From an uncultured Gammaproteobacteria bacterium (lineage in GTDB: Bacteria; Pseudomonadota; Gammaproteobacteria; JAURND01), in contig CAVQQD010000002.1 of the NCBI GenBank assembly GCA_963714975.1, forward strand, positions 384,001 to 448,000: a stretch of DNA of 64,000 nt. Reading direction: 5' to 3'. This document shows, piece after piece, positions 3 through 33,086 of the stretch. The first letter of the stretch is position 1, and each line of letters starts with the position of its first letter. The notes under the pieces are model-generated. The model was given only the letters and a program-made list of their open reading frames with translations. It was not told the origin of the DNA and ran no database searches. The translations under genes were made by a program, and so were the position numbers.

Positions 3-1337
3 AAAAGTTTTAATGTCCTACTCGATAGCAATGGTCGTGCTAAGTTAGCGGATTTTGGCTCAGCGACCATTAAAACTTGTTCTACAGCAAGTACAAGCTT
101 TAAAGGCACCATATTGTGGGCTGCACCTGAAACGTTCACAGATGAACCTACCCAAAAATCAGATGTCTACAGTGCTGGCATGATCTTGTGGGAACTGGCT
201 AGTCGTGAAATTCCTTACAAGAAAGCGGGAAGTATGGCAGGGATGTGGATTATGCAAGGAAAAAGGGAAACTTTTCCACCAGATACTCCTACAGAATTTC
301 AGGCCATAGCTGAAGATTGCTGGCAAGCCCCTGAAAAACGTCCTGAGGCTAAGGTATTAGCCAAACAACTCGATCAATTATGGCAAGCTGCTCAAAAGAG
401 TGAAATAAAAGAAAAAGCGGCACCACCTAGTACTAGCCCCAGCTCTTCTGTTGGAAAAAAACTAAATGATGGTAGCCAATTTGCCCCTACTCAACCCATC
501 GACATTAAGACACCTAAAAAAACAGAAGAAAAAGAAAGCATCCACTTTATGGCGCAATCCGGCCTGATGACGCATCAATCCACCGTTGCGACGCAGACCT
601 CGACGAGCACTACCCCCTCCCTACATGCCAGTCAACCGGCATTCTTTGGTGGAGCTAGTAGCTCTTCTAGCACCACATCGAGTGAAGTCAAAATAAAAAC
701 AGCTCCTCTGGATGAAAAAAAGCGCCAACAATTGATGCCACTACAAAATGAATTAATCATGGCTTGTGAAAATGGCAGTTTGGCGAAAGTGAAAGTCGCC
801 ATCGCTAAAGGGGCCTTAGTGGATTTACCCAATGCCCAAGGTAAAAATCCTCTGTATTGTGCGGTGTATGGCATGAATCCTGAAGTAGTGAATTATGTCA
901 TTGCGCAATGGAGTAAAAATGTTTCCGCCAATTCGTGGCAAGCGTGTGAAGAACACAACAGAAAATACTATGGACAAACTTTTTTAAACATGAAATTTGC
1001 GCCTGTTACTTACAAAAATTGGTATGATTTACTAGAGAAGATCAAACATAATGAATTTTTGGCGGGGTATCATCTCACACAGGCGCGGAAGTATTATCCA
1101 GAGGCTAAGAAAGTAGCAGACTTCGAGGACTTCATGATCATTATCTGGAGCGGGCAAGACGCTCAAATCGGAAGGCAGGGGCGTCATGATCAGTTGGGAT
1201 ATGCGTTCGCGTGGCAATCTCAGACTGAAAGAGGATTTGCAAGTTACCGGAATCAAATTAAGCAGGCGATGGAGGGATTACAGGCTGTACAAACTAATCA
1301 GTCAGTGAGTATGACTGGTAGTACGAGTACGAATTAG
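3..1337 (+). CDS. Eukaryote-like Ser/Thr (TKL-like) kinase effector with one C-terminal ankyrin-like module; 5' end lies outside the window
   Basis: Frame is open from base 3 (KSFNVLLDSNGRAKLADFG...GTILWAAPE...SDVYSAG); paralogous to 1742..4420; module LQNELI.ACENG...NPLYCAVYG. Confidence 0.85.
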   Translation, partial: KSFNVLLDSNGRAKLADFGSATIKTCSTASTSFKGTILWAAPETFTDEPTQKSDVYSAGMILWELASREIPYKKAGSMAGMWIMQGKRETFPPDTPTEFQAIAEDCWQAPEKRPEAKVLAKQLDQLWQAAQKSEIKEKAAPPSTSPSSSVGKKLNDGSQFAPTQPIDIKTPKKTEEKESIHFMAQSGLMTHQSTVATQTSTSTTPSLHASQPAFFGGASSSSSTTSSEVKIKTAPLDEKKRQQLMPLQNELIMACENGSLAKVKVAIAKGALVDLPNAQGKNPLYCAVYGMNPEVVNYVIAQWSKNVSANSWQACEEHNRKYYGQTFLNMKFAPVTYKNWYDLLEKIKHNEFLAGYHLTQARKYYPEAKKVADFEDFMIIIWSGQDAQIGRQGRHDQLGYAFAWQSQTERGFASYRNQIKQAMEGLQAVQTNQSVSMTGSTSTN

Positions 1338-1741
1338 CCGACGAGATTCACCAAGGAGTGAACCGTCGCAGATAATTCGTGGCTTGCCAAAAAAATATTC
1401 TGTAATCCTGCCACGCACCAGGGCTTAAATTTGACCGCATATTGCCGAAGTCGAGAGGGACTTGTCTTTTGCTCTTTTGAGCTCGAAAATGTGCTTTTTA
1501 CTCTTCCAAAAACCGCATCCCTTCCGGCCAAGACAAGCCAAATTCGTCAACGCCAATTCTACAGGTATTGCTCCAAAGCACACTGCGATGTAATTTTTTG
1601 ACCACCTAAATTTTTTCTCGATTCAGGTTTACTTAAACTACCTCGATTGATATGCTACGTTCCTTGCATTTATTCTTAATCCCTAGATTAGTTATCTGCT
1701 GCGACTCCGACTCCAATTAATACAACAAGGGAGAGTGTCCC

Positions 1742-4420
1742 ATGTCATCACAAACCAAACTTGAAATCAAACCTCCATCCTCCACGCAACTAATTCAATC
1801 GGATGGCGCCGTGTCAATTTCTTTTAACATTCGCTACAAAGATTTATCTTTTGATAATAGAGACAATCCCTTGGGTGAGGGTGCTTATGGAAAAGTTTAT
1901 AGAGGGAAATGGGATTTTAATACCGTAGCCATTAAGGAATACACTGCACAAGATTTTTCTGAGAAAACTCAAAAAGAAATCCGTACGGAAGCTTCTGTCA
2001 TGGCACAAGTCAGTACTACGTCTGATTATTTGGTGCGTCTCAAAGGTATGAGTTTAGAAAAACCCCATTATTGTTTGGTGATGGAGTATATGGACGGTGG
2101 CGATTTGTACCATTATTTGCACAGTAATCGAGATATTTCATGGGAGGCCCGTTATCGTTGGGGTTCGGATATTTGTATTGGCTTGCATCATTTACACAGC
2201 AAAGAAATTTTGCATCGGGATTTAAAAAGTTTAAATGTGTTGCTTGACAGTAATGGTCGCGCTAAGTTGGCTGACTTTGGTATGGCAACCATTAAAGCCA
2301 GCTCTTCGGTAAGTACGAAAGGAGGTTTTAAAGGTACTTTGTTATGGGCTGCTCCCGAGCTATTTAAGCCACGTAGTAAACCCACTAAAGCCGCCGATGT
2401 TTACAGTCTTGGCATGGTACTTTGGGAATTAGCCAGTAGAGAAATCCCATTTAAAGGTGCAGGAAATATGGCGACTGCTTGGATTATGCAAGGCACCCAA
2501 GAAGAAGTACCCGAAGATACTCCCCCTGAATTTAAAACGATGATTCTCGATTGTTGGCAAGCGCCTGAAAAGCGTCCCGAGGCTAAAGTATTGGCCGGAC
2601 AGCTCGATCAATTATGTCAAACCGCTCAAAAAACTGAATTAAAAGAAACAGTGGCGTCATCGAGTACCAGTCCCAGTTCTTTTGGTAAAAAACTGAATGA
2701 TCTATTTGCCCCTATTCCGCTTATCAGCCAATTGACCCTTAAACCCATTGATATTAAGACAGCTAAGAAAACAGAAGAAAAAGAAATAGCTCACTTTATG
2801 GCGCAATCCAGCTTGATGACGCATCAATCCTCTGGTACAACACAAGTCTCGACGACTGCTCCTTCTCTACATGCCAGTCAACCGGCGTTTTTTGGCGGAG
2901 CCAGTAGCTCTTCTAGCACTTCAACCAGTGAAGCCAAAACAAAAGTAGTTCCCTTGGATGAAAAAAGTCGCCAACAATTGATGCCGCTACAAAATGAATT
3001 AATTCAAGCTTGCGAAAATGGTAGTTTAGCGAAAGTTAAGGCCGCCATTGGCAAAGGGGCTTTAGTCGATTTACCCAACGAACAAGGTAACAACCCGCTG
3101 TATTGTGCCGTGTATGGCATGAATCCTGAGGTAGTGAATTATGTCATTGCACAACTTGGTGAAAATGCTCCTGCCAATTCTTGGCAAGCGTGTGAAGAAC
3201 ATAACAAAAAACACTATGGACAAACCTATTTAAACATGAAATTTGCGGATGACTTATTGATAAAAACTGAATCCAATGAATTTTTAGCGGAATATCATCT
3301 AGTTCAAGCACGAAAAATGATGAAAGATGAGACCAATAAGCATTGTGAGACTTTTGATGCTTTCAAACAGCGGAAGAATGAGGGACGCCGTATTACGTGG
3401 TTGACCGATTATCGAGATCTCGATGGGCGGGTCACACAGATGACAGAGACGGGGTATGAAGTTTATAGAAATCAAATTAAGCAGGCGATGGAGGGATTAC
3501 AGGTGGCACAAATCGGTCAGTTGGTTGGTAAAAAACTGAATGATCCATTTGCCCCTATTCCACCCGTTGATAACAGCCACTTTTACCTCATCGATATTAA
3601 GACACCTAAAACAGAAGAAAAGGAAAGCACCCGCTTTATGACGCAATCCAGTGTGGTGACGCAACAATCCTCTGCTACAACACAAGTCTCGACGACTGCT
3701 CCTTCTCTACATGCCAGTCAACCGGCATTTTTTGGTGGAGGTAGTAGTTCTTCTAGTACTACATCGAGTGAAGACAAAATCAAAGAGGTTCCATCGGATG
3801 AAAAGAAGCACCAGCAATTGATGCCACTACAAAATGAATTAACCACTGCCTGCGAAAATGGCAGCTTAGCGAAAGTTAAGGCCGCCATTGGCAAAGGGGC
3901 CTTAGTGGATTTACCCAATGCCCAAGGTAAAAATCCTCTGTATTGTGCCGTGTATGGCATGAATCCTGAAGTAGTGAACTATGTCATTGCGCAACGAAGT
4001 GAAAATGCGCCTGCTTCTTGGCAAGGTTGTGAAGAGCACAACAAAAAACACTACGGACAAATCTTTTTAAACATGGAATTTGCGCCTGTCTATTACCAAA
4101 ATTGGCACGATTTACTGTTGAAGATTAAATCTAATGATTTTTTGGCAGACTATCATCTTAAACAGGTTCAAAAGTATTGTGATAAGAAAAACGCTGATTG
4201 GTACACAAGCTTGGAGCGATTGATAGAATGGTTGGGGCGGTGGGACCTAGTGTCACCAGGGTATTGGGTGGAGTCGATTCCTAGTTCGTGGGCTGCGGTG
4301 CGCAACACTGAGCTAGGGTACCAGGTTAACAGGAGCCAAATTAAGCAAGCAATTGAGGGGTTACAGGCGGCGCAAACCAATCAGTCAGTGAGTATGACTG
4401 GTAGTACGAGTACGAATTAG
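1742..4420 (+). CDS. Eukaryote-like Ser/Thr kinase effector with Ser/Thr-rich linkers and two ankyrin-like modules
   Basis: GEGAYGKVY, VAIK, HRDLKSLN, DFG and WAAPE motifs; SD-like GGAGAG upstream; two copies of the module. Confidence 0.88.
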   Translation: MSSQTKLEIKPPSSTQLIQSDGAVSISFNIRYKDLSFDNRDNPLGEGAYGKVYRGKWDFNTVAIKEYTAQDFSEKTQKEIRTEASVMAQVSTTSDYLVRLKGMSLEKPHYCLVMEYMDGGDLYHYLHSNRDISWEARYRWGSDICIGLHHLHSKEILHRDLKSLNVLLDSNGRAKLADFGMATIKASSSVSTKGGFKGTLLWAAPELFKPRSKPTKAADVYSLGMVLWELASREIPFKGAGNMATAWIMQGTQEEVPEDTPPEFKTMILDCWQAPEKRPEAKVLAGQLDQLCQTAQKTELKETVASSSTSPSSFGKKLNDLFAPIPLISQLTLKPIDIKTAKKTEEKEIAHFMAQSSLMTHQSSGTTQVSTTAPSLHASQPAFFGGASSSSSTSTSEAKTKVVPLDEKSRQQLMPLQNELIQACENGSLAKVKAAIGKGALVDLPNEQGNNPLYCAVYGMNPEVVNYVIAQLGENAPANSWQACEEHNKKHYGQTYLNMKFADDLLIKTESNEFLAEYHLVQARKMMKDETNKHCETFDAFKQRKNEGRRITWLTDYRDLDGRVTQMTETGYEVYRNQIKQAMEGLQVAQIGQLVGKKLNDPFAPIPPVDNSHFYLIDIKTPKTEEKESTRFMTQSSVVTQQSSATTQVSTTAPSLHASQPAFFGGGSSSSSTTSSEDKIKEVPSDEKKHQQLMPLQNELTTACENGSLAKVKAAIGKGALVDLPNAQGKNPLYCAVYGMNPEVVNYVIAQRSENAPASWQGCEEHNKKHYGQIFLNMEFAPVYYQNWHDLLLKIKSNDFLADYHLKQVQKYCDKKNADWYTSLERLIEWLGRWDLVSPGYWVESIPSSWAAVRNTELGYQVNRSQIKQAIEGLQAAQTNQSVSMTGSTSTN

Positions 4421-4500
4421 CCGACGAGGTTTGAGCTCGAAAATATGCTTTTTACTCTTCCCAAAACCGCATCCCTTCCGGCCAGGATAAGCCCAATTCG
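4340..4500 (+). repeat. Direct repeat of the 3' end and downstream DNA of the first kinase gene (~1255-1547, with an internal deletion); evidence of tandem gene duplication
   Basis: AATCAGTCAGTGAGTATGACTGGTAGTACGAGTACGAATTAGCCGACGAG and the GAGCTCGAAAAT...AATTCG block occur after both genes. Confidence 0.85.
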
Positions 4501-4552
4501 CTAACCCCATGATGGATACAGCCGCTCAGTGGTTCAATGAGTAATACATTTT

Positions 4553-5950
4553 TCATGGGTAAGTTTCCTGTTGTTGGAAGGGAATGAACAGAGTGAAGAT
4601 GCTGCCTTGATTAAGTGTGCTTTCTACTCGAATTTCACCGCCTAACTCGGTTAAAAATTGTTTCACAAGACTTAATCCCAGTCCCTTGCCTTCATACTGC
4701 GCTTGATAGGAAGGAGTGAGGCGATGAAAGGGTTCAAAGATTTTCTGGCGTTGCTCTGCAGGAATACCGATGCCGCTGTCGCTTACGGTAAAACGAATTA
4801 ACCACTGGTGTTCACGTTCAGACTCAACCGCGGTTTGTAGGCGCACAAACCCTTGGGGCGTGAATTTGATCGCATTGGCGAGAACATGTAGCAAAATTTG
4901 CTGGGTGCGCAGCCGATCACCACAAACGCTGGTGGGCAGAGACTGGGTCACTTCCCAGGTAAAATGTAATTGCTTGGCTTGAGCGGTCGGCGCTAGCATC
5001 GCATAGGTGGTTTGCACCAGGGCCGGTAAATCAAAGGCCGCTTGACTTACCAGGGTCCTGGCTGTGGAGCGTACATAGTCTAAAATTTCATTGAGATGAG
5101 TGAGTAAGGCCTCAGCTGAATCCATGATGCATTGCAGACCGATTTTCCGTTCCGCATTTTCCTCGTTTAAAGCCAGGGTTTCGGTCATGGTCACCAGACC
5201 ACAAAACGGCGTCCGTAAATCGTGGCTGATATTGTGCAGAAAATCGTCTTTGGCTTGCAGGGCTTGCAACAACGCCTTTTCGGCTTCGATGCGGGCGGTA
5301 ATATCAATTGAAACGCCCGCCATTCCTACAATTTGACCGCGACGCCGCAACGGCACTTTGTGAGAGAGAAAAATCGCTTCGCGGCCATTCGGCAACAGGG
5401 CGGGCTCTTCGACAATTTGTGCTTCGCCGGTGCGCATAATGGTTTGATTGAGCGCATCTAAAGTTTCGGGTAATTGCCCGGCATTGATATTCCAGGGTAA
5501 ATCGCTATTACGTTTGCCGACAATGTCTTCACGCGAGACCAGACCTGCGGATTCGGCTTGCTGATTATTGCAGCCTAAATACCGCCCTTTACGATCAATC
5601 CAATACAAATGTTCTGGCATGATGGCTAATAAATTATCGAGTAATTCGTATTGGTCCTGCAGCGAAGCAGGGGGCGGACGCTGTCGATAGGCGAGAATGC
5701 TCCCAATCACTGCGCCACAGGTGAACATGCTGAAGATATAACCCCACACCAACCACCAATCTCGTTGCAAAAAACCGTGCCAAACAATTGTCGCTTGAAT
5801 TAGCCAAAAGCCGACAAAGGTCAGCAAGGAAACTTCTTGAGCAGTTTTTTCTTTGAGGATTTTGATAAATTGCGGAATAAACTGTAGGGCATTGATAAAA
5901 AGCGCAGAGCTCAATAACAGATCAGAAAGAGCAGGGAAGTTCAGTAGCAT
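4553..5950 (-). CDS. Sensor histidine kinase: PQ-loop/SemiSWEET-like 3-TM domain + PAS + HisKA + HATPase
   Basis: FIPQFIKILKEK...VSLLTF (PQ motif); HLYWID..GRYLGCN (PAS); NISHDLRTP H-box; ANAIKF, DSGIGI and GKGLGL boxes; AGGAG SD. Confidence 0.88.
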   Translation of the reverse strand: MLLNFPALSDLLLSSALFINALQFIPQFIKILKEKTAQEVSLLTFVGFWLIQATIVWHGFLQRDWWLVWGYIFSMFTCGAVIGSILAYRQRPPPASLQDQYELLDNLLAIMPEHLYWIDRKGRYLGCNNQQAESAGLVSREDIVGKRNSDLPWNINAGQLPETLDALNQTIMRTGEAQIVEEPALLPNGREAIFLSHKVPLRRRGQIVGMAGVSIDITARIEAEKALLQALQAKDDFLHNISHDLRTPFCGLVTMTETLALNEENAERKIGLQCIMDSAEALLTHLNEILDYVRSTARTLVSQAAFDLPALVQTTYAMLAPTAQAKQLHFTWEVTQSLPTSVCGDRLRTQQILLHVLANAIKFTPQGFVRLQTAVESEREHQWLIRFTVSDSGIGIPAEQRQKIFEPFHRLTPSYQAQYEGKGLGLSLVKQFLTELGGEIRVESTLNQGSIFTLFIPFQQQETYP

Positions 5951-5963
5951 CGAATAGGCTCCT

Positions 5964-6716
5964 CTAAGTTAGCTTAGGTTCAACGGGAGGTAAGGACATA
6001 AAGCGTTGCGGCTTGAACTGCTTGCGCTGCTTAAACTTAATCGCGATCGGATGTAATAAATCGGGATAGCGTGGAAGTAAGAATTGTTGATGGGTATAAG
6101 TCATCGCCGCATTGCGTGGGCTGGGGTAGATTTCATAATGGCACTGCAATTCCGGCCATAAACAAAGCGCAGTGCATTCTTCCAGGACATAATCTCGGCA
6201 TAACTCTTGGGCACGGGCGTAATTAAATTGTCTCAGTATTTCAGGGGACAAACGTGGGGTGTAGCGCTGTAAAAAAGTGCGGATCGTGCTATGAATGGCT
6301 TGTTGATAGGCCGGGTATTGGGTCACTAAATAGTTGACGCGTCGAAAAGTGGCGGGATAACGCGGATGAGTTAACCAATAATCCCACTGCACTATTTTAA
6401 GCTGCGGTAACTGTTCATAAACAATTTGATTGCGCGCTAACCAGGCTGCGCCTGCTTGCTGCGTAGTCGCTACAAAATCCTCAGCTCGAAGCATAGGGTG
6501 TAGTAATGCCAGAGTATGGCGCTGCAGGGTATCATCAATTAGCAAAGTGCAGCGTGCAAATTGCTGATGCACCAAAGCTACGGTGGCCGCAAAGGGTTCT
6601 CCTTCGTGCACTTCTTGACCGACGCTAATCGTCAGTAAACAATGCGCCTGATCGAAAGGAATGGGCGCGTGAATTGCGTCGTATTTGAAAATGGGTTTGA
6701 TTTTGTTCGGATTCAT
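5964..6716 (-). CDS. tRNA-dependent cyclodipeptide synthase (CDPS, XYP-type)
   Basis: ISVGQ..HEG, DTLQRH, W..RN, WDYW, YVLEEC and YP motifs; ATG at 6716 with AGGA SD (alternative start 6749). Confidence 0.8.
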   Translation of the reverse strand: MNPNKIKPIFKYDAIHAPIPFDQAHCLLTISVGQEVHEGEPFAATVALVHQQFARCTLLIDDTLQRHTLALLHPMLRAEDFVATTQQAGAAWLARNQIVYEQLPQLKIVQWDYWLTHPRYPATFRRVNYLVTQYPAYQQAIHSTIRTFLQRYTPRLSPEILRQFNYARAQELCRDYVLEECTALCLWPELQCHYEIYPSPRNAAMTYTHQQFLLPRYPDLLHPIAIKFKQRKQFKPQRFMSLPPVEPKLT

Positions 6717-6725
6717 CGGCGCGTT

Positions 6726-7064
6726 CCTGGGTTGATGCGATAAAAGCATCGAACCAGGTAAGCGGCAGCAGAGGATTTGGGTAGGTGATGGCGAAGCGAG
6801 GAAAATACAGCGTTACTTCGCCATACCTATTCTCCTCTGCTACTCGCTTACCCCTCGTCCACTGGATGAACACCCCCCAAAAACCTGGACACTCGTACCC
6901 CAAGTCCACAACACGCCGCGGACAATCGAAGAGTTTTCATGGGGTAAAAGCTTATTGATCCAGGTATACCACTTTTGCCTAGACCAACGCCAAGTGAAAA
7001 AATGGGTGAACATCAAGAAAAGAGTTTTGCACAAACGCACATTGCGATAAGCTTCCATCGTCAC
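6726..7064. ncRNA. Putative structured non-coding RNA or leader with several long stems; may continue at 9610-9705 beyond the intron
   Basis: Hairpins 6726-6758 and 6757-6852; nested stems 6865-7014; no convincing ORF. Confidence 0.4.
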
Positions 7065-9609
7065 GTGCGCCGTGGAGGCGCTAAACATTGAGTGTGATAA
7101 CAATCATTAGGATTGCTGGAATATCCTATATCTACCCAACTTATCCTTGCCTAGTAATAGGCTGGAATCTCGAAAGAGAAAGGGGAGTGTAGCATGTTGG
7201 GAAAAGACTTCTAATTTTAGAAATTATCTATAGAAGAGAGGTCAAGATAAGACGTGTAAGGTTAAGGTTGGATTACTTGAACCCTAGTTCTGACGGTTTT
7301 TACGTACAGGCACAGACGAAAGATAATTGAAACGTCTGTTTTAAATACATAGTAATCATTGTGACGGATTACCATGACCAGTTATTTAAACGTACCCTCA
7401 TACAAGGGATACGGAACGAACGGGGAACCTAACCACGCCGCTTCTCTGGTTTAGTGTAACCATGGGATTACCTAAGTTGGTGTGAAATATAACCAATAAG
7501 GTAACGGAGCTTCCATATTACCCTGTCACTTCTGTAATGGAAGTGGCTGATTACTGGGAAAGTAATACCGACATGGTTATAAGTTGGCAGTAATGTCAAT
7601 GAAAGACCCACTGTCTGGGGGGAAGGGAAGCAGCCTATTTTTCGTATTGAAATCTTATGAGAGGCTGTGCTGATGCTAGCCGCTACTACGATTAAGAGAA
7701 TAAATACACTAGGAATATTATCTAATAAAGGGAAACGTATAAATGGTCTTTTTAGACTCATGGAGAACCCTTGTCTGTGGATGCAGGCATACAGCAAAAT
7801 CTATGCCAACAAAGGTGCCACAACACCAGGAATAGATGGAAAAACACTGGATGGATTCTCCAAGGAACGTGTTGGCTATTTGATTGAGCAGCTCAAACAA
7901 GATCATTATCGGTTTAAACCAGCAAAACGAATATATATTCCAAAAGCGAACGGTAAACAGCGACCATTAGGTATACCTTCTGGAGATGATAAATTAGTTG
8001 CTGAAGTTGTCAGGATGATTCTGGAAAGAATCTATGAGCCGATATTTTGCAAGAACGCCCATGGATTCAGGCCAGGAAAATCCTGTCACACAGCACTAAG
8101 AGATATACAACATCAATGGACAGGCATGAAGTGGATCATTGATATGGATGTTCAAAGTTTCTTCGATAATATTGACCATGCAATACTCATTAGCCTTCTT
8201 AAAAATAAGATTGATGATAAGAGATTCATCAACCTTATTGAACTAATGCTGCAAGCAGGTTATGTCGAAAACTGGAAATTCCATAAAACGTACAGCGGTG
8301 CTGCCCAAGGAAGTGGTATTTCCCCATTGCTTGCCAACATCTACTTGCACGAACTGGATCAGTTTGTGGAGGAAATCCAAGTAGAATTTAACCGAGGAAA
8401 GAAACGAGCAAGCAGGAAGAAGTATGCTTGTATATCTACCACCCTCTCAAATCTAAGGAAAAAGGTGGATAACCTGAAGCAACAGGAAAATACGGAAGAA
8501 CAAATTCAGGTTATCAAATACCGAATTAAAGCCTTAGATTTAAAACAGAAGGAAACTGTGGCACTCGACCCCCTAGACCCGAACTTTAAAAGATTACGCT
8601 ACTGCCGATATGCAGATGACTTTGTAATTGGAATTATCGGTTCCAAACAGGATGCCATTACATTGCGAGATAAAATTCAAAAATTTATCGAAGCACAATT
8701 GCACCTGAACATTGCACCTGAAAAATCTTATATAGTACATGGTCAAAAGGGGGCTAGGTTTCTAGGCTATGACATACGGATATACTCCGATGATAAAATA
8801 GTCAAAACTATCAAAGGAGGGCGTCATTGTCGTGTGAGAAGTATGACGAACAAAATGCAGTTGCACATCCCGCACGAGAAAATCAAATCGTTCTGCAAGA
8901 GTAAAAAGTACGGAAACTATGGTATAACTAAAGCACGCCATAGACCAGAGTTACTCAACCTGAGCGACGCCGAAATTGTTGAAACCTATAACGCTGAGTT
9001 ACAGGGATTGGCGAATTACTATGCCCTATCCCAAAACTACTGGGATCTAAGCAAGATAGCGTGGATCTGGCAAAAGAGTTTATTAAAAACCCTAGCAGCC
9101 AAACACAAAACCACAAGTTATCGAATATGGAAGCAGCTGAAAACACCCAGTGGTTTAGCACTCACCGTTCGCAGTCCGAAGAAAATTCGCCTCTTTAAAA
9201 TTTTCAACATCAAGGACATCGATCGTGAAACCCCCATCTGGGGGGATGTTGATCAAAAGGCCAATACGAGGAGGTTTACATGGTGTAAAACTGAACTTAT
9301 AAAGCGGCTGAACGCAGAGCAATGTGAATATTGCGGGCAGCGCGACGGCAAGTTTGAAGTACACCATATCCGAAAATTGAGCGACATTAAAGATGGAAGG
9401 AAAATGTGGCAAATAATTATGGCAAGGAAAAAGAGAAAAACTCTTGTATTGTGTACCCTTTGCCATAAAAATCTACATACTGGTATACTCCCTGACTGGA
9501 GAAATCCTACACAAAAACGGGTGGAGAGCCGGATGAATTGAAAGGTTCAAGTCCGGTTCGGAGGGGGGGTGACGGGTTATCCTACGGGAGGCCTCGCTCC
9601 CTACCCTAC
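7065..9609 (+). mobile_element. Group IIA intron, apparently complete
   Basis: 5' GTGCG at 7065; EBS1 GTGACG (7361-7366, in loop of a GTAATC/GATTAC stem) pairs with IBS1 CGTCAC (7059-7064); domain V GAGCCGGATG...GTCCGGTTC 9526-9559; 3' end CCCTAC at 9609. Confidence 0.92.
7673..9541 (+). CDS. ltrA: Group II intron-encoded reverse transcriptase/maturase with HNH endonuclease domain (LtrA-like)
   Basis: RPLGIP, HGFRPG, QGSGISPLLANIYL, RYADDF, FLGY; C-terminal CEYCG..EVHH..LCTLCH. Confidence 0.92.
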   Translation: MLAATTIKRINTLGILSNKGKRINGLFRLMENPCLWMQAYSKIYANKGATTPGIDGKTLDGFSKERVGYLIEQLKQDHYRFKPAKRIYIPKANGKQRPLGIPSGDDKLVAEVVRMILERIYEPIFCKNAHGFRPGKSCHTALRDIQHQWTGMKWIIDMDVQSFFDNIDHAILISLLKNKIDDKRFINLIELMLQAGYVENWKFHKTYSGAAQGSGISPLLANIYLHELDQFVEEIQVEFNRGKKRASRKKYACISTTLSNLRKKVDNLKQQENTEEQIQVIKYRIKALDLKQKETVALDPLDPNFKRLRYCRYADDFVIGIIGSKQDAITLRDKIQKFIEAQLHLNIAPEKSYIVHGQKGARFLGYDIRIYSDDKIVKTIKGGRHCRVRSMTNKMQLHIPHEKIKSFCKSKKYGNYGITKARHRPELLNLSDAEIVETYNAELQGLANYYALSQNYWDLSKIAWIWQKSLLKTLAAKHKTTSYRIWKQLKTPSGLALTVRSPKKIRLFKIFNIKDIDRETPIWGDVDQKANTRRFTWCKTELIKRLNAEQCEYCGQRDGKFEVHHIRKLSDIKDGRKMWQIIMARKKRKTLVLCTLCHKNLHTGILPDWRNPTQKRVESRMN

Positions 9610-9676
9610 GGCTATAACCTCCGGGGTTATCGTTGTGAAAGTGCCTCAAGAATGTTAGATGCATTCTTTTGGCGCG

Positions 9677-9706: not shown

Positions 9707-9812
9707 TCATTATTCATTGACTTTAGCCGAAATGCAAATATTTCTTAATGTCGGCTTAATTTAGTAAGTGCAATCGATGGTCCTTAGCCCCTAATTTATA
9801 TATATTGCTTTT

Positions 9813-9831
9813 TATACCCTTGGAGGGTATA
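9813..9831 (+). promoter_or_regulatory. Palindromic operator upstream of the toxin-antitoxin operon
   Basis: TATACCCT-TGG-AGGGTATA perfect 8-bp inverted repeat overlapping the SD region. Confidence 0.6.
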
Positions 9832-9834
9832 TTT

Positions 9835-10146
9835 ATGGTCTTCATAGAAACACATATATTTACAAAACAGCTTAACGATTACCTCTCAGATGAGGAATAC
9901 CGAAAGTTACAGGAATTTCTTATTGAAAATCCTCATGTGGGCGATTTAATTCAAGGCACAGGCGGGTTACGCAAGCTGCGTTGGGGGTTGGAAAATAAGG
10001 GAAAACGAGGTGGGGTAAGGATCATTTATTATTGGCAGACATTTTATAACCAAATTTATTTGATGACATTGTATGCAAAAAATGAAATGACTGATTTAAC
10101 TGCGAAAGAGAAAAAAGCACTCCAGCAAATGATAGAAAGGTGGTAA
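9835..10146 (+). CDS. higB: RelE/HigB-family toxin
   Basis: MVFIET..F; GDLIQGTGGLRKLRW...GKRGGVRIIYY; YAKNE..DL. Confidence 0.88.
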   Translation: MVFIETHIFTKQLNDYLSDEEYRKLQEFLIENPHVGDLIQGTGGLRKLRWGLENKGKRGGVRIIYYWQTFYNQIYLMTLYAKNEMTDLTAKEKKALQQMIERW

Positions 10147-10148
10147 TA

Positions 10149-10472
10149 ATGGCTACACAAAAAAAGCGTAACTTATTTGAAGAGCTGAAAAGTGGCGTCG
10201 AAGAAATTAATGAACATAAAGCAGGCAAAATAACCTTACGTAACTTCACCTTTAAAAAGAAATCCAAACCCAAAGTTACTGCTAGTTTTATTCGTAAAAC
10301 GCGCCAAGAATTTCACATGTCGCGCAATGTATTTGCTCTAAAATTACGAGTGTCCCCTCGAACTCTCGAAAAATGGGAACAAGGCGAAACCACACCTAAC
10401 GATCAAGCAGCCACATTAATTTTAATGGTACACAAATTTCCTGATACTCTTAAACGCCTTGAAGAAATTTAA
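10149..10472 (+). CDS. higA: HigA-like XRE HTH antitoxin
   Basis: RNLFEELK.G..E; HTH ...FALKLRVSPRTLEKWEQG; directly downstream of the toxin. Confidence 0.85.
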   Translation: MATQKKRNLFEELKSGVEEINEHKAGKITLRNFTFKKKSKPKVTASFIRKTRQEFHMSRNVFALKLRVSPRTLEKWEQGETTPNDQAATLILMVHKFPDTLKRLEEI

Positions 10473-10975: not shown

Positions 10976-11905
10976 ATGGCCCCTAATATTTTTACTTGTT
11001 TTATCATTGGAGAGGATAATCTCCATTTGGAATGTGCCAAAATTATCCAACAACAAGGACAGCAAATCGTAGGCATTATTTCTGCGTATGAAGCCGCAGA
11101 ACTCTGGGCCTTGCAACTGGGAATTCCCCACTACGCCTCTCTAGCAGCCGCCCAAGAAGCATTCAACAAAACTTCTTTTGATTATTTATTTAGCATCGTC
11201 AATGCACAGATTTTGCCTGCAGCGATACTCAATCTGCCTCGGCAATTGGCGATTAATTTTCATGATGCGCCTTTACCGCGATATGCCGGAGTTCACGCCA
11301 CTTCCTGGGCAATCTTAAATCAAGAACAGACCCATGGCATCACCTGGCATGTGGCCACAGAAACCGTCGATGCCGGGGATATTTTGCAGCAAGTGACGGT
11401 GCCGATTACTGAAGATGAAACTACGTTGAGTTTAAACCTCAAATGCTACGAAGCCGCACTGCAAAGCTTCCCGGATTTAGTGCAATCTTTAGCGAAGCAC
11501 AGTTATCAACGCCAACCTCAAGATTTAAGTCAACGTACCTATTTTGGCCTTCATCAAAAACCTGCTGGTGATGGTTGGATTGATTGGAATGCCAGTGCTG
11601 AAGCTACTGAGCGATTATTTCGGGCTACTCAATTTGGCTCTTATCCTAATCGTTTTACTTGTCCGAAATTTAAACGAGGGGAAGAGGAATTTATCATCAC
11701 TCAATTAGAGCTATTATCCGAGTCATCGACTGCAGCTCCTGGAACCATAGTTGCTGTTACTGCGGACTATTGGCGCATTGCAACCGCTAGTTACGACATT
11801 GCCATTCGACAGATTTGTACTTTAGAAGGTGATGCAGTCACTCTTGCAGAAGAGAGGGTGCTAGATCAAGCTTACCCCTCATCCGGCCTTCGACCATTAA
11901 TATAG
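10976..11905 (+). CDS. Formyltransferase domain protein, probably the truncated N-terminus of a larger NRPS-type gene
   Basis: INFHDAPLPRYAG, HGITWH, DAGDIL, WIDW; 3' end runs into an opposite-strand Fic remnant. Confidence 0.7.
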   Translation: MAPNIFTCFIIGEDNLHLECAKIIQQQGQQIVGIISAYEAAELWALQLGIPHYASLAAAQEAFNKTSFDYLFSIVNAQILPAAILNLPRQLAINFHDAPLPRYAGVHATSWAILNQEQTHGITWHVATETVDAGDILQQVTVPITEDETTLSLNLKCYEAALQSFPDLVQSLAKHSYQRQPQDLSQRTYFGLHQKPAGDGWIDWNASAEATERLFRATQFGSYPNRFTCPKFKRGEEEFIITQLELLSESSTAAPGTIVAVTADYWRIATASYDIAIRQICTLEGDAVTLAEERVLDQAYPSSGLRPLI

Positions 11906-12338
11906 TATTTTACCGTTCCAACCTTGATACTCTTTAGTAAATTTAGGTCTTCAAGTGTTTGTAAGTAAAGGGCTGCAGTTTGACGTTTAGCCAATCCCGC
12001 ATCTTCTAAGAAACGAGCCTTGCAATAAGGATGCCGGAATATGATGTCTATTAAATCTCTACTATAAATTTTAGGGGCTTTAGTTTGTACCTTCTTTTTA
12101 GCAGTTTCTATGGCCTCGAGTATCTTGATTACTCGCTCTTGGGTTTCAAATGCTGTAGCTCGAATGGCCTCCAGTATGTACAAAACCCAATCAGCCCATG
12201 CCCCTTCCTCTGTCACCCGCCCTAGCCCCTCATAATATGATTGCCTTGTCCGCAAGATATAATCGGTTTATCAAGCAACCCTTTTTCAACCAGGAACAGA
12301 ATATTAATTACACGACCAGTACGGCCATTGCCATCCAC
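11872..12338 (-). pseudogene. Fic-family protein remnant
   Basis: [16 protein letters not shown] near 12290-12338, out of frame with the C-terminal part (YYEGL..VT..GAWADWVLY...); HPF and N-terminus missing. Confidence 0.75.
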
Positions 12339-12344
12339 AATCGG

Positions 12345-12629
12345 TCAGTGGTCATACCATGAATATTGAAGCCTTTCCGCCGTGTAGTCGAGGCAGCTGG
12401 CTTGAATCCCAAGGAAATTGTCCGCCATACCCTACGGCACACAGCAATTACCCACCTAGTGCAAGCTGGTGTTGATCTGCCTACAGTGAAACGAATCTCA
12501 GGGCATAAGACGTTGCAGATGGTGGAACGGTATAGTCATCAGAATGGGGCACATATTCAGGCAGCGATGGATAAGCTGGAGGAAAGGTATAAACAGACCC
12601 CTTCTTCCTTGATTCTTACCTCTAAATAA
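12345..12629 (+). pseudogene. Tyrosine recombinase/integrase C-terminal fragment
   Basis: HTLRHTAITHL...ISGHK...ERYSH catalytic motifs; no N-terminus. Confidence 0.8.
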
Positions 12630-14875: not shown

Positions 14876-15042
14876 CACGATCGTGTTTTGATACAGCTCC
14901 TCGTCGATTGGTTCGTTCAAAATATTTTTTTATTATTTCCCAATCGTTATCTGTTACATCACTTGGATATCCCATTTCAACCCTCCTACTATTTTTTCTA
15001 GTAGGAGAAATTATATAGGATTTTCTTTAACCAAACAGCTTC
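14868..15042 (-). mobile_element. IS5-family left-end remnant: terminal IR plus the first ~33 transposase codons
   Basis: 14975 ATG MGYPSDVTDNDWEIIKKYF...KHDR; IR GAAGCTGTTTGGTTAA ending at 15042 equals the IRs at 17364 and 17586. Confidence 0.7.
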
Positions 15043-15956
15043 TCAGAGCCAGAAAAACACCTATCACAAACCCGCCTAATCTCCCCCCGCAACCAAACCA
15101 ATCCCGCATCATTATCCTGCTGCCGATGCCAGACTTGCACGATAGGAAAAGGTGCAATAAAGAAGGGAGGAGGAGCAAATTTCAGCTGATATTTTTTCGC
15201 CGACTGCAAGATAATATTCCTAGAAAAAGTACCAACCAGGTCAGAAGAAGCAAGTATTTCTAATGCCGGGAGAGCATTAGGGAGGGAGAGTTTAATATTA
15301 CGTTGCAAATTCAGTTTTCGCAGCGCCTGATCAGCTCTGGGTAACTCTTCAGAATAGACACAGGCCGCCAGATGTTCCGCCTGCAAATAGCGCTCCAAGG
15401 TCAACGGTTTTTTAAAAATAGCATGATTCGCACGAGCAACGCATACCGGTTGATCCATAAAAAGCTTTTCCGCCTGCAACTGCCTGGGAAACTTTTTAGC
15501 TAAACCAATGCCGATATCCAATTTTTCCTTTTCAAAATCCTCCGCACAGAATTCATTGTGGTGAAGAATTTTTAAGGAAACTTTAGGTGCTGACTTTCTG
15601 ATCTGCTCATAAATTTTTCCCAGCAATACATATTCCGCATAGTTCGTCATACCCAATTTGAATGTACGCGTGGAAGTTTTATATTCAAATTCATCGCTAT
15701 GGAAGAGTAAAGTTTCTAGCTCATTCAAGGCCTGATCGACTTTTGGCGCTAAAAATAAAGCCTTTTGCGTGGGGATCATCCTCTTCGGGCCACGAATCAA
15801 TAACTCGTCCTGAAATAATTCCCGTAACTGCTGTAATGAATTACTGATAGCTGGCTGAGTAAGATGTAAGCGATTAGCGGCGGCAGAAACATGTTGTTCC
15901 TGCATAAGCACGGAAAATACTTTTAAGAGATTAATATTGATTCTATAGATGTTCAT
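15027..15956 (-). CDS. LysR-family transcriptional regulator
   Basis: NLLKVF...VSAAANRLHLTQPAISNSLQQLRELFQDELL; WH...D.GLVWLR. Confidence 0.92.
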   Translation of the reverse strand: MNIYRININLLKVFSVLMQEQHVSAAANRLHLTQPAISNSLQQLRELFQDELLIRGPKRMIPTQKALFLAPKVDQALNELETLLFHSDEFEYKTSTRTFKLGMTNYAEYVLLGKIYEQIRKSAPKVSLKILHHNEFCAEDFEKEKLDIGIGLAKKFPRQLQAEKLFMDQPVCVARANHAIFKKPLTLERYLQAEHLAACVYSEELPRADQALRKLNLQRNIKLSLPNALPALEILASSDLVGTFSRNIILQSAKKYQLKFAPPPFFIAPFPIVQVWHRQQDNDAGLVWLRGEIRRVCDRCFSGSEKLFG

Positions 15957-15968
15957 AGGCGACAGATT

Positions 15969-17276
15969 CTAATGTAGTAAAAATATAAAATAACCTAGAA
16001 ATATCGCCGCAATAAACAACAGCATAAGATTTAATTCCTTCCTCTTGCCAGTGATAGATTTCAGAATCACATAGGCAATAATGCCCATGCCTATGCCGTC
16101 AGCAATGGAAAAGCTGAATGGAATCATGACAACGATGAGGATGCAGGGTATGAAATCAGTGAGATCCTGGACATTGAACAAGGTGATATTCCTCATCATC
16201 AGTATGCCCACATAGAATAACGCTGGCGCCACTGCATAAGCTGGAATAGACATTGCCAATGGCGACAGAAACAATACCAGTAAAAATAATAGCGCAACCA
16301 CAATAGCGACCAGGCCGGTTCGCCCTCCAGCTTCAATACCCGCAGCGCTTTCCATATAAGGACTGGTGGGGGCAGTTCCGAGCAAAGATCCGGAAATAGT
16401 GCCAATGCTCTCAGCCATGAGCGCGCGGGAAGTTCTTTGTACGCGCCGCGGATCCTGACGAAACAGAGAATGTCGTAATAAACCAACCAGAGCTCCGGTG
16501 GAGTCAAAAAACGCGGCCAATAAAAAGGTAAAAATAATGGGTAAAGATTGGTACTGCAGCGCCCCTTTTAAATCCAGGGCCAGAAAAGTTGGCGCTATGC
16601 TGGGAGGTAATGAAAAGAAACCGTGAAATTGCGACATGCCCAGCAAGAGGCTTATCAGCGTAATGATGAAGATGGAGATAATTAAGCCGCCGTGGATGCG
16701 AAAATGATCTAAGGCGACGATGATAAAAAAGCCAAGGAAAAATAGAATACTCGGCCCAGAACCGAGATGACCAATGGCCAAAAGCGTTTTACCACTGGGC
16801 TTGATAATGATTTCAGCATTTTCCAGAGCAATTAAGGCGATGAACATCCCTAGGCCAACGGTAATGGCAAGATTGATATGCTCAGGCATGGATTCAACAA
16901 TCCACATTCGTGCCTTAGTCAGAGTGATTATGAAAAAAATGACTCCGGAGATAAACACCATTCCCAAAGCTTGTTGCCAAGAGTAACCCGAGCCTAGGAC
17001 TACCGTGTACGCAAAGAAGGAAACAATTCCCATCGCCGGCGCGATCGCAATGGGATAATTAGCTATTAAACCGAGTAATACACTGGCAATAATAATGACT
17101 AAGCAGGTTGCCACATAAACCGCGCCCTTATCCATGCCAGAGGCGCCGAGGATAAGGGGGTTCACGAAGATGATATAGGACATGGTCAGGAAAGTAGTGA
17201 GCCCAGCCAGACACTCTCGGCTTATGGTTGTTTTATTTTCTGACAGTTTGAATAATTGAGTAATAAAGCGCTGCAT
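15969..17276 (-). CDS. NCS2/AzgA-family purine (guanine/hypoxanthine) permease
   Basis: AGLTTFLTMSYIIFVNP.IL; APAMG; YMESAAGIEAGGRTGL; SIADGI. Confidence 0.92.
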   Translation of the reverse strand: MQRFITQLFKLSENKTTISRECLAGLTTFLTMSYIIFVNPLILGASGMDKGAVYVATCLVIIIASVLLGLIANYPIAIAPAMGIVSFFAYTVVLGSGYSWQQALGMVFISGVIFFIITLTKARMWIVESMPEHINLAITVGLGMFIALIALENAEIIIKPSGKTLLAIGHLGSGPSILFFLGFFIIVALDHFRIHGGLIISIFIITLISLLLGMSQFHGFFSLPPSIAPTFLALDLKGALQYQSLPIIFTFLLAAFFDSTGALVGLLRHSLFRQDPRRVQRTSRALMAESIGTISGSLLGTAPTSPYMESAAGIEAGGRTGLVAIVVALLFLLVLFLSPLAMSIPAYAVAPALFYVGILMMRNITLFNVQDLTDFIPCILIVVMIPFSFSIADGIGMGIIAYVILKSITGKRKELNLMLLFIAAIFLGYFIFLLH

Positions 17277-17363
17277 GGCTGGGTTCCTGAAGAAGGTTTA
17301 ATGTTTTTAATCAATAGGTTATATATTTTATTTGCGCGTTTTCTGGGTTCTAATATTATCTTA

Positions 17364-17586
17364 GAAGCTGTTTGGTTAAAAAATATATATAATTTTTCAT
17401 TTTTTGGCTTTTCCACCTTGATTGGAGCAATATTCAATCCTGTGGCCGTCATTGCGAGGAGCTTGCTTTGAGCAATCCAGTTAACCTAGCTTTATTGTGG
17501 ATTGCTCAAAGCAAGCTCCTCGCAATGACGGCCAGGGGACTTTTATTTTTGTCTACCCGCATAGAATTTTTTAACCAAACAGCTTC
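17364..17586. mobile_element. MITE with IS5-type ends enclosing a palindromic repeat
   Basis: GAAGCTGTTTGGTTAAAAAAT ... ATTTTTTAACCAAACAGCTTC, flanked by TA on both sides; internal hairpin 17439-17536. Confidence 0.7.
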
Positions 17587-17594
17587 TAAGCAAA

Positions 17595-18071: not shown

Positions 18072-18074
18072 AAT

Positions 18075-20623: not shown

Positions 20624-20626
20624 GTA

Positions 20627-31496: not shown

Positions 31497-33086
31497 TTGT
31501 CTAGATTTTTCGCCCGCTATAGTGTGTATTGGAAAGATACTAATGGAGGCTATCGTGGTGGCAATGATGAATTAGCTCGCCTAGCAGGTTTTAAATCCAG
31601 GAAAGAGATTCGTGGAAAAACAGATATTGATTTTTCCAAGGCGTTCCATTGGGATAAGGAAATGTTAGCGGGAGTTATTGCTGTCGACCAAAAAGTCATG
31701 CAAACAGGTGTTGCACGGTTAAATCATGAAGAAGAACCCTTCATAGACGTTAATGGGAATCTCATTTATCAATTAACGAATAAAGTCCCTCTGCCTAATC
31801 CTGCTAAAAAAGTTACTGGCGTAGTGGGTATTTCTATAAATATTTCCGAATTAAAAAAAATGCAGAAAGATCTGCGTTTAGCCTTGGAAGCCGCCGAAGC
31901 TTCCGATCGTGCTAAAACGGATTTTATCCAAAACATGAGTCACGATGTCAAAACGCCGCTGGCGGGTATTATTTCCATGGCGCACAGGATCGGCACGCAA
32001 CTCGAGGAGCCCGATGCTCTCGAAGATAATTATGAAAATGTGCAGATGATTAAAGATTCGGGCAGGCAATTGATAGAATTTTTTATGAATTGTTTAGAGA
32101 TGGGGCGGATTGAAACCGAAGGGGTGGCACTTAGCAATGAAAATTTCAATCCCCAAACCATAACGGATCAGCTTGTCGAGATGTTGACCCCTTCCATGAA
32201 ACAAAAAGGCTTAGGATTTTATTCCACTTATGATCCCGCTATTCCTGAAATGGTGTATGCCAGCGCGCCGGGATTTTATCGGATAATTTTAAATTTACTA
32301 GGCAATGCGATTAAATTTACTGAGGAAGGCTCGATAAGCATGGACATTCTCTTACGGAAAACTCGCGATGAAGACACTGGCAAAGACAAAGAGGAACTTT
32401 GTTTAAAAATCCGCGATACTGGTATGGGTATTCCCCAAGAAAAAATCGCGACTATTTTCGACCGCTTTACGCGCTTGACCCCTTCCTATGAAGGCAAATT
32501 TGAGGGCCATGGGATTGGGCTGTATATTGTGCATAAATTTGTCACTTTGATGGGAGGAAAAATTGATGTGGACAGCGAAGTGGGTAAGGGCAGTTGCTTC
32601 ACCATCACGTTTCCTTTTCTACCCGCCAAGGCATTCCTTAAACCAAGAGCAGTCAAACCTAAGTTTACCAAGCTAGCACCGCTTGGGGGTGCTGCCAGCG
32701 AGGAAGAGAAGATAGGTCCGCGTATTTTGTTGGTTGAGGATAACCGGATGGCTCAAAAAGGCGTGGAATCAATACTCACGCACTTAGGTTATACGGTCGA
32801 TATTGTGGATACAGGTAAGAAAGGCATAGAGATTTTTGAATTGGATAAATATGTACTGATTGTGCTCGATATTGGGTTAAAGGATATGAGTGGGACGACG
32901 GTAGCAGCGCATATTCGTACTGCAGAAAAGGGTCGAAAAAATCCAGTGCCGATTGTGGCTCTGACGGCCCATAATGTTGAAAAAGTTCAAGCGGCGTGTC
33001 AGGCAGTGGGCATTAATGGGGTACTGGAAAAGCCTCTGACTGAGGAAGTGGCTCAGGAGGTGTTGGATTGTTTTCTGAAGCAATGA
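31497..33086 (+). CDS. Hybrid sensor histidine kinase (PAS-HisKA-HATPase-REC), 5'-truncated by the IS3
   Basis: VYWKD..G.YRGGN PAS; NMSHDVKTP; NLLGNAIKF; receiver ILLVEDN...LDIGL; ORF start lies inside the IS right IR. Confidence 0.85.
   Translation: MSRFFARYSVYWKDTNGGYRGGNDELARLAGFKSRKEIRGKTDIDFSKAFHWDKEMLAGVIAVDQKVMQTGVARLNHEEEPFIDVNGNLIYQLTNKVPLPNPAKKVTGVVGISINISELKKMQKDLRLALEAAEASDRAKTDFIQNMSHDVKTPLAGIISMAHRIGTQLEEPDALEDNYENVQMIKDSGRQLIEFFMNCLEMGRIETEGVALSNENFNPQTITDQLVEMLTPSMKQKGLGFYSTYDPAIPEMVYASAPGFYRIILNLLGNAIKFTEEGSISMDILLRKTRDEDTGKDKEELCLKIRDTGMGIPQEKIATIFDRFTRLTPSYEGKFEGHGIGLYIVHKFVTLMGGKIDVDSEVGKGSCFTITFPFLPAKAFLKPRAVKPKFTKLAPLGGAASEEEKIGPRILLVEDNRMAQKGVESILTHLGYTVDIVDTGKKGIEIFELDKYVLIVLDIGLKDMSGTTVAAHIRTAEKGRKNPVPIVALTAHNVEKVQAACQAVGINGVLEKPLTEEVAQEVLDCFLKQ

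Follow-up and report, generated by a model that had tools for sequence, protein, structure and literature searches.

Do a cyclodipeptide synthase (CDPS) and the histidine kinase encoded directly behind it form a signalling pair, and, if so, which part of the kinase meets the product? The question is raised by positions 4553..6716 of a 64,000-nucleotide stretch of DNA (the window: contig CAVQQD010000002.1, positions 384,001 to 448,000) from an uncultured Gammaproteobacteria bacterium. Here, a synthase gene is followed by the gene of a kinase with PQ-loop and PAS input domains. The original prediction, made from the letters of the window, saw a synthase-sensor pair in which a transporter fold serves as receptor for a self-made cyclic dipeptide. 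We find a conserved module of CDPS, SemiSWEET-like part and PAS kinase, of which this locus is a degenerate copy. The chances are slightly better than even, in our judgement, that it is one copy of a three-part module that makes, moves and senses a cyclodipeptide.

The cyclodipeptide synthase

The synthase open reading frame (ORF) covers 5964..6749 on the minus strand and would encode 261 amino acids if its first in-frame ATG (6749) were used. The start at MNPNK (6716) is conserved and gives a protein of 250 amino acids (5964..6716, minus strand) with the same sequence as database protein P0001. In a phmmer search against solved structures, it matches 5ocd_A (E=1.5e-53, aligned residues 17-241), 5mlq_A (1.9e-32), 5mlp_A (2e-7) and 6y4b_A (1.8e-3), all of which carry the name cyclodipeptide synthase or CDPS. 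The first three entries are Fdum-CDPS from Fluoribacter dumoffii, Nbra-CDPS and Rgry-CDPS (PMC12945691).

The three motifs that first marked the ORF as CDPS-like hold up in an alignment of 31 CDPS sequences: the Ser of ISVGQ, the two Glu of YVLEEC and the YP pair are invariant, and the Tyr of YVLEE is nearly so. In the 250 amino acid numbering these positions are S31, Y176, E179/E180 and Y197-P198, with the same residues in 5ocd and 5mlq. The XYP signature consists of a catalytic Ser, a Tyr...Glu pair, whose Tyr is Tyr178 in AlbC, and a Tyr-Pro. Ser37, Glu182 and Tyr202 of AlbC have been named as CDPS residues (PMC12945691). Of 625 candidates from a word-based search, 163 are relatives at E<=0.001; two of these are labelled by their source as tRNA-dependent cyclodipeptide synthase, and almost all are metagenomic proteins without a name. 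Judged by its sequence, the ORF at 5964..6716 is a real XYP-type CDPS.

Fdum-CDPS uses two Gly-tRNA and Nbra-CDPS uses Glu and Ala (PMC12945691), while the CDPS of Legionella lansingensis makes cGE and one Legionellaceae group makes cAA (PMC5816076). Because characterised relatives yield cGG, cGE, cAE or cAA, the product of the window CDPS is, by analogy, probably a polar diketopiperazine. The block had also seemed richer in GC than its surroundings; the difference is real yet modest, with 47.9% for the CDPS gene and 48.5% for the kinase gene against 43.1% for the whole 2.56-Mb genome.

The sensor kinase and its SemiSWEET-like domain

The CDPS gene ends in TAG, 13 nt (5951..5963, minus strand) ahead of the co-oriented kinase gene. 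As predicted, the kinase gene has a Shine-Dalgarno-like site of its own, for the spacer opens with AGGAG, 8 nt ahead of the kinase ATG. The kinase ORF (4553..5950, minus strand) encodes 465 amino acids, in which Pfam finds a PQ-loop domain (residues 8-46; 23.4 bits, cut-off 22), PAS_4 (112-220; E=1.6e-11), HisKA (233-297) and HATPase_c (344-459). The protein divides into a PQ-loop or SemiSWEET-like domain of three transmembrane helices (TM1 to TM3; residues 1-95, 5666..5950), a variable polar linker with one PAS domain that carries a conserved LPxHxYW...GCN motif (residues 96-225, 5276..5665) and the HisKA and HATPase_c core (residues 226-465 and stop, 4553..5275), all on the minus strand. The catalytic motifs are all found: H243 in the H-box, N359, DSGIG (G1) at 391 and GKGLG (G2) at 421.

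The input proposed for the kinase, a three-helix PQ-loop domain plus PAS, is supported by several lines of evidence beside Pfam. An AlphaFold model of residues 1-100, made with 30 homologous domains (mean pLDDT 77), has helices at 5-34, 42-61 and 65-89. In a Foldseek search with this model, every top row is a SemiSWEET; the best is 4rng_C (TM-score 0.71/0.84, rmsd 1.8 A, 26% identity), for which E is merely 1e-2, the model being so short. The profile of the 30 domains matches the SemiSWEET sequences 4rng_A (6.1e-9), 4x5m (9.1e-9) and 9kax (4e-8). In the 30 sequences the Gln of the Pro-Gln hinge (Q27) is invariant and its Pro (P26) nearly invariant.

EcSemiSWEET has a pocket of Thr15, Trp50 and Asn66, a Pro21-Gln22 hinge and a TM3 that protrudes into the cytoplasm (PMC4309421). 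In our alignment the pocket positions of the window domain hold N20, I55 and Y71, the hinge is retained as P26-Q27, and the subfamily has invariant polar residues of its own (Q52, K35 and S41). Because Trp50 and Asn66 are replaced by I55 and Y71, we do not file the domain as a sugar SemiSWEET; from sequence and model, it is predicted to be a SemiSWEET fold without the sugar pocket. A homodimer prediction with two copies of the domain scored 0.01, which is no answer, and we use it neither way.

Between TM3 and the PAS motif lie 19-32 polar residues, often rich in Pro or Gly and variable between members of the family. The PAS domain is the best-conserved part of the kinase, both between genomes and among paralogs. 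Its sole match among solved structures is the PAS domain of BvgS (E=0.0066), which gives no ligand clue.

Conserved linkage of synthase, PQ-loop part and kinase

Scanning one genome per species with patterns drawn from the clade of the window CDPS gave 36 loci, of which 34 are informative (L043 and L044 end inside the CDPS). By their record titles, the hosts are Legionella maceachernii, metagenome-assembled genomes (MAGs) of Legionella and Tatlockia, Coxiellaceae, Legionellales and unclassified gammaproteobacterial MAGs, together with one 'Burkholderiales' MAG and one 'Thiotrichales' MAG. In 33 of the 34, the CDPS has a PAS-containing kinase next to it, complete or truncated at a contig end, and L010 shows just a HATPase_c fragment. 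The pairing of synthase and kinase is not chance. A member of the PQ-loop subfamily is present in 27 loci (in 20 the Pfam score reaches the cut-off, and in 7 tblastn alone detects it). In 13 loci it is fused to the kinase, in L015 to a divergent one; in 14 it is a gene of its own, either upstream of the CDPS (11 loci, 89-117 amino acids) or between CDPS and kinase (3 loci). The CDPSs across these loci are just 31-51% identical.

Two loci join the parts in another way. L018 (5995-8796) has CDPS, PAS and kinase in one frame of 933 amino acids with a separate PQ-loop gene upstream, and L025 (1791-3507) apparently has the same single frame (572+ amino acids, cut by the contig end), also with a PQ-loop gene upstream. 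The recurrence of PQ-loop-kinase and CDPS-kinase fusions argues that synthase, PQ-loop part and kinase act on one molecule. A quick CDPS tree with weak support places separate genes at the base and makes fusion the derived condition, with no fewer than four changes.

Receiver parts follow in most loci, as a single REC, as REC-Hpt or as REC and Hpt domains inside hybrid kinases; in L009 and L011 the receiver part is a divergent REC-LuxR regulator. Tailoring genes and further exporters are missing from most loci, and the reported lack of adjacent tailoring enzymes holds within the window. The synthase slot is usually filled by a CDPS, and in single loci by a YcaO-domain protein, a nonribosomal peptide synthetase (NRPS) condensation-domain protein or an unrecognised enzyme. 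The conserved core is a synthase, a SemiSWEET-like part, a PAS kinase and a receiver. Since the CDPS, the PQ-loop plus PAS input and the conserved adjacency are all supported, a synthase-sensor pair is the best reading of the locus.

The PQ-loop subfamily beyond the CDPS loci

A word-based search with kinase residues 1-100 found 2 proteins, too insensitive for a census, and a profile search was used instead. Among 1.84 billion representative proteins it found 1251 members of the PQ-loop subfamily at E<=1e-3 (226 at 1e-10 and 38 at 1e-30). Thirty-five of the best 150 are at least 380 amino acids long, and 33 of these consist of PQ-loop, one or two PAS domains and kinase, some also with REC and Hpt; of the other two, one has a PAS domain only and one is PQ-REC. 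The original prediction had named two kinds of fusion that might accompany CDPS genes. The first, PQ-loop-kinase, is that of the 33 members above; the second, PQ-loop-LuxR, was seen by Pfam in none of the 49 longest of the best 150 members.

Seven members of 204-254 amino acids (P0124, P0125, P0126, P0129, P0135, P0141 and P0149) are tandem forms with 3+1+3 helices. The model of P0124 (pLDDT 85) resembles eukaryotic SWEETs (5ctg, E=9e-5, TM-score 0.64-0.67; 5xpd, query TM-score 0.70), and cystinosin and the KDEL receptor (TM-score 0.61/0.65) are among its lower-ranked structural matches. This likeness of a tandem form to SWEETs is indirect support for a pathway made by a parallel homodimer of single domains.

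Eight metagenome loci were found through the PQ-loop pattern. Three have an adjoining CDPS and three are uninformative; of the remaining two, one encodes a PAS kinase whose N-terminal region is unexplained, and the other an NRPS condensation-domain protein. Five other whole genomes contain 9 PQ-subfamily genes, 5 of them within about 1 kb of a CDPS. Two of the other four stand in the same layout of PQ-loop, PAS-PAS-kinase and REC, with a YcaO protein or a 429 amino acid protein in the synthase slot. The YcaO-domain protein (L061, G013:C13:1-7500) has 648 amino acids and TldD/PmbA alongside; the 429 amino acid protein is in L058 (G009:C28:102500-112500). We rejected the latter as a CDPS (hhalign 0.7%, no PDB or Pfam match), and also the N-terminal 340 amino acids of a 938 amino acid kinase in L054 as a divergent CDPS (0 PDB matches, hhalign probability 0.1%).

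Paralogous cassettes and the state of the window copy

The 2.56-Mb genome has the CDPS-kinase pair in 5-6 diverged copies, of which the window holds copy A. Three CDPS genes (A, B and C) and four kinase genes (A, B, C and D) are intact. The CDPS of copy D is frameshifted; copy E has an insertion sequence (IS) inside its CDPS and a frameshifted kinase; in copy F a CDPS fragment of 71 codons is joined to the receiver gene. Copy B is a full cassette. It starts with a divergent bimodular NRPS (F-A-T-C-A-T-TE, about 3030 amino acids) with an N-terminal formyltransferase, followed by a PAS-PAS-kinase-REC protein. Next come the CDPS, the PQ-PAS-kinase, a REC-only protein of 131 amino acids and a small ORF without a family, and at the end stand eukaryote-like Ser/Thr kinase genes and an integrase-like gene. 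The NRPS is at G000:C2:14772-23864 (loci L045/L046), and the stub at 10976-11905 is its trace in the window. The formyl-NRPS and its PAS kinase look like a second, NRPS-based dipeptide synthase/kinase pair, divergent from the CDPS pair. Because the formyl domain occurs in 0 of the 36 related loci, the NRPS is specific to the cassette of this genome and lies outside the conserved module.

The cognate response regulator had been described as not adjacent to the kinase. No whole gene is there, but a remnant of 34 codons (4452..4556, minus strand) is: by alignment with copies B and D, it begins with the first 9 codons of the receiver gene and ends with the final codons of the small ORF further downstream. 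The ATG of the remnant and the stop of the kinase gene overlap in ATGA, and a deletion of about 730 bp took out the rest of the receiver gene. Copies B and D have the 131 amino acid receiver gene at this position, in B with an ATG that overlaps the kinase stop. As these alignments read, the regulator is missing by deletion in the window copy and not by design. Because its own receiver is deleted, any output from the window copy must run through the receivers of paralogous cassettes, which survive in copies B, D and F. In these receivers (B, L045:11328-11723, minus strand; D, L047:9485-9880, minus strand; F, G000:C2, about 961.4 kb), EPD or EPN replaces the acidic pair.

The four intact kinase copies differ by a dS of 0.24-0.37 (dN and dS, nonsynonymous and synonymous divergence), with a dN/dS of 0.08-0.15 over the whole kinase. 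The cassette copies are old duplicates under purifying selection. By part, dN/dS among paralogs is lowest in PAS (0.02-0.07), against 0.12-0.18 in the CDPS and 0.11-0.25 in the PQ-loop; within the kinase, the PQ-loop changes fastest, chiefly in the TM2-TM3 loop and TM3. Downstream of the kinase, copies A and D are 99% identical over 5.8 kb, against about 90% in their CDPS-kinase parts, which suggests recent recombination.

Could the window copy simply be a decaying paralog without a working output, the relic of a repeated island flanked by integrases? Its receiver is deleted, its NRPS is down to 309 amino acids, a group II intron and a toxin-antitoxin pair have entered its upstream region, its cassette halves are 19 kb apart with IS elements between them, and copies D, E and F are broken too. 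Against this, its CDPS and kinase are full length with all catalytic motifs kept, its dN/dS against the other copies is 0.10-0.15, and receivers persist in copies B, D and F. We regard a relic of this kind as doubtful.

Proposed mechanism and its alternatives

In the module as we picture it, the CDPS would join the residues of two aminoacyl-tRNAs and free a small diketopiperazine into the cytoplasm. Inside the kinase homodimer, the SemiSWEET-like domains would pair to form a six-helix pocket or pathway in which the sugar-binding residues are replaced, and this putative pathway would let the dipeptide cross, or lodge in, the inner membrane. The PAS domain, just inside the membrane, would read the dipeptide (or whether the conduit is occupied) and set the autophosphorylation of H243. 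The phosphoryl group would then pass to a receiver protein or a phosphorelay. Such a circuit would resemble a pair of autoinducer synthase and sensor kinase.

The original prediction placed the receptor elsewhere, in the PQ-loop domain itself: a dipeptide on the periplasmic side would sit in the dimer pocket, and the change would be relayed through TM3 to PAS and kinase. Several findings would suit this. Fusion of the domain to a kinase is seen in 13 of the 34 loci and, within the subfamily, in 33 of its 35 long members; kinases form homodimers, and a dimer is what SemiSWEETs need (PMC4309421); the fold can be a receptor, with KDEL-receptor chains among the matches of the tandem member; and the PQ-loop is the part quickest to change among paralogs, as expected of a specificity site. 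The pairing of synthase and sensor stands, with 33 of 34 loci, but the receptor role fares poorly. Where the PQ-loop part is a separate gene (14 of the 27) or absent, 14 of 18 kinases have no hydrophobic segment and appear soluble. Stand-alone and tandem PQ-loop forms, the latter with seven helices, look like transporters; the linker between TM3 and PAS is polar, not conserved, variable in length and rich in Pro or Gly; and PAS is far better conserved than the PQ-loop, between genomes as well as among paralogs. For these reasons we judge a PQ-loop receptor improbable, and the evidence suggests that the PQ-loop part serves as a conduit, with detection in the cytoplasm left to the PAS domain. 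A conduit is also preferred because small polar dipeptides would need help in crossing the membrane and the SemiSWEET pocket measures about 8-9 by 11 A (PMC4309421).

We think it similarly unlikely that the system serves control on the producer's side only, the dipeptide being an exported effector or metabolite aimed at a host or competitors, the PQ-loop part its exporter, and the PAS kinase a sensor of an unrelated cytoplasmic cue (redox, energy or amino-acid state) that switches the operon and its effector-like neighbours. Action on host cells has been proposed for the CDPSs of intracellular bacteria (PMC2922099), the module is flanked by eukaryote-like kinase/ankyrin or leucine-rich repeat genes in the window as well as in L011, L014, L016 and L027, the same type of PAS kinase stands beside an NRPS, a YcaO protein and the 429 amino acid protein, and a PAS domain conserved across differing synthases fits a common, product-independent cue; yet repeated PQ-loop-kinase and CDPS-kinase fusions would make little sense if the product had no direct functional tie to the kinase, and most loci have neither tailoring genes nor a further exporter.

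Returning to the make-move-sense module, several observations weigh against it. Profile models had been suggested as a check on both domains. The PQ-loop passes its cut-off, but the CDPS has no match in the Pfam scan (PF16715 included) and scores 21.1 bits with TIGR04539, under the cut-off of 45. Because 5ocd is a proven CDPS, these two curated models evidently under-represent the clade of the window CDPS. The tally of loci is silent on other CDPSs, its patterns having come from this clade. Pfam and tblastn find no PQ-loop part in 7 of the 34 loci, and 4 of the 9 PQ-subfamily genes in the five other genomes are not beside a CDPS, two of them with no signalling neighbours whatever. The strong conservation of PAS is odd if every kinase senses a different product. 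The same type of PAS kinase also follows an NRPS, a YcaO protein and the 429 amino acid protein, so the family may be a lineage-wide partner of many operons and not a dipeptide sensor. In the receivers of copies B, D and F, the phospho-acceptor column holds Thr, Asn and Asn, where 8 aligned orthologues from other genomes have Asp; to judge from these residues, this genome may have REC-only proteins that are atypical receivers or pseudo-receivers. The window copy itself has lost its receiver gene and may be decaying.

More speculatively, and with little confidence, we propose that Legionella-like intracellular bacteria hold a modular cassette of small-peptide synthase, re-purposed SemiSWEET conduit and dedicated PAS kinase. 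Because charged tRNAs are the substrates of a CDPS, its diketopiperazine would signal the state of amino-acid charging, in the cell and, through the conduit, in the population. The 5-6 diverged cassettes of this genome would then be parallel private channels.

Genomic neighbourhood

A promoter and terminator scan of 4300-7400 gave 3 and 3 sites, not above shuffled sequence. Among sequencing runs, none of RNA was listed as containing the locus, and a single DNA run contains a 0.09 share of its words. Upstream of the CDPS, a group II intron specific to the window copy (7054..9631, plus strand; Rfam, Pfam and comparison of the copies) lies between the CDPS and the NRPS stub. It looks complete, with an ORF for reverse transcriptase, maturase and HNH domains at 7667-9541 (Pfam RVT_1, Intron_maturas2 and HNH) and a domain V at 9524-9609 (Rfam RF00029, 63.6 bits). 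A pair of RelE-like toxin and helix-turn-helix antitoxin (9805..10472, plus strand), recognised by Pfam and by comparison of the copies, is a second copy-specific insertion. The NRPS stub (10976..11905, plus strand) encodes 309 amino acids with the formyltransferase domain (Pfam Formyl_trans_N/C); the NRPS is whole in other copies. At the break (11872-12629) are a C-terminal fragment of a Fic-family protein (127 amino acids) and the tail of a phage-type integrase (87 amino acids).

The remaining half of the cassette is at 31.5-52 kb, with IS elements around it. It includes a HisKA-HATPase-REC hybrid kinase (31497..33086, plus strand), which corresponds, in shortened form, to the PAS-PAS kinase behind the NRPS of copy B and is here displaced by about 19 kb from the CDPS half. 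The block between the halves (15027-29545) encodes a LysR regulator, a xanthine/uracil permease, MoeA, a MoaC-MoaB fusion, MoaA, an ABC transporter, XdhC and a single xanthine-dehydrogenase-like protein of 1383 amino acids. There are four transposase or integrase genes (30459-31307, 36566-37972, 41916-43481 and 48729-50135); a giant ankyrin protein, encoded in copy B by one ORF of 2540 amino acids, is here split into two parts (39156-41852 and 43684-48492) by the gene at 41916-43481.

On the other side of the kinase gene, Pfam identifies a eukaryote-like Ser/Thr kinase with ankyrin repeats (1742..4420, plus strand), part of the repeated cassette, and a second, cut copy is at 3-1337. Several kinases of this eukaryote-like kind, with ankyrin repeats and linkers rich in Ser and Thr, lie at 3-4420 and 52582-56280 of the window and also at L045:8594-10486.

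Comparison with known systems

Diketopiperazines have long been called bacterial signals. A 2026 review ties diketopiperazine signalling just to LuxR-type solo receptors in the text available, with no dedicated synthase-receptor locus (PMC13220807). Skinnider et al. 2018 noted that PAS domains recur near CDPS genes and that the products may be quorum-sensing metabolites; the passage is silent on histidine kinases, PQ-loop or SemiSWEET proteins, fusions and the Legionella-like clade, and the word 'kinase' occurs 0 times in that paper (PMC5767969). Aravind and colleagues described CDPSs in Legionella and Rickettsiella and suggested host manipulation (PMC2922099). The text available from three CDPS papers (PMC5816076, PMC2922099 and PMC5767969) makes no mention of a tie between a CDPS and a kinase plus PQ-loop protein. 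Full-text searches, with subscription journals and supplements outside their scope, found no paper that ties a CDPS to a PQ-loop or SemiSWEET protein or to a histidine kinase; 'PQ-loop' and 'histidine kinase' co-occur in two unrelated fungal papers. The module of CDPS, SemiSWEET-like part and PAS kinase is thus probably undescribed in the literature searched.

The more speculative cassette would, if real, be the first diketopiperazine signalling circuit to be defined genetically. A conserved operon of CDPS and sensor kinase would make such signalling directly testable with three proteins. It would add a new class of histidine kinase input domain, a SemiSWEET fold with a rebuilt pocket. It would also give the orphan CDPSs of Legionella-like, amoeba-associated bacteria a role beyond antibiotic-style secondary metabolism.

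The closest relatives of the synthase are Fdum-CDPS (5OCD) and other XYP CDPSs, to which it can be aligned over residues 17-241 with the same Ser, Tyr...Glu and Tyr-Pro motifs and which share the Legionella-like host range (PMC5816076). With SemiSWEETs (4RNG and EcSemiSWEET 4X5M) the input domain shares three transmembrane helices, the PQ hinge and a length of about 90 residues. It differs in the pocket, where N20/I55/Y71 stand for Thr15/Trp50/Asn66, in its own invariant Q52, K35 and S41, and in being fused to a PAS kinase or encoded beside a CDPS.

LqsA-LqsS-LqsR of Legionella and CqsA-CqsS of Vibrio likewise have a synthase gene that adjoins the gene of the presumed sensor kinase, with receiver or phosphorelay parts near (PMC8023197, PMC3376566). 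There is no homology between them and the window system, in which the synthase is tRNA-dependent and not a pyridoxal phosphate enzyme, and the input is three SemiSWEET-like helices plus PAS in place of a multi-helix membrane sensor. The CqsA/LqsA and CqsS/LqsS families are absent from the profile matches listed, where only the kinase core hits LuxQ/LetS-type models, far under the cut-off. By analogy, the window system may work like Cqs/Lqs; it is not a member.

In flux-sensing Bce-type systems, a transporter acts with a histidine kinase. DctA and DcuS form sensor units in which a transport protein and a histidine kinase are one sensing unit, as is proposed here (PMC4280142). The window system differs from both in that the transporter-like part is often covalently fused to the kinase and has another fold, and the presumed ligand would come from the adjacent gene.

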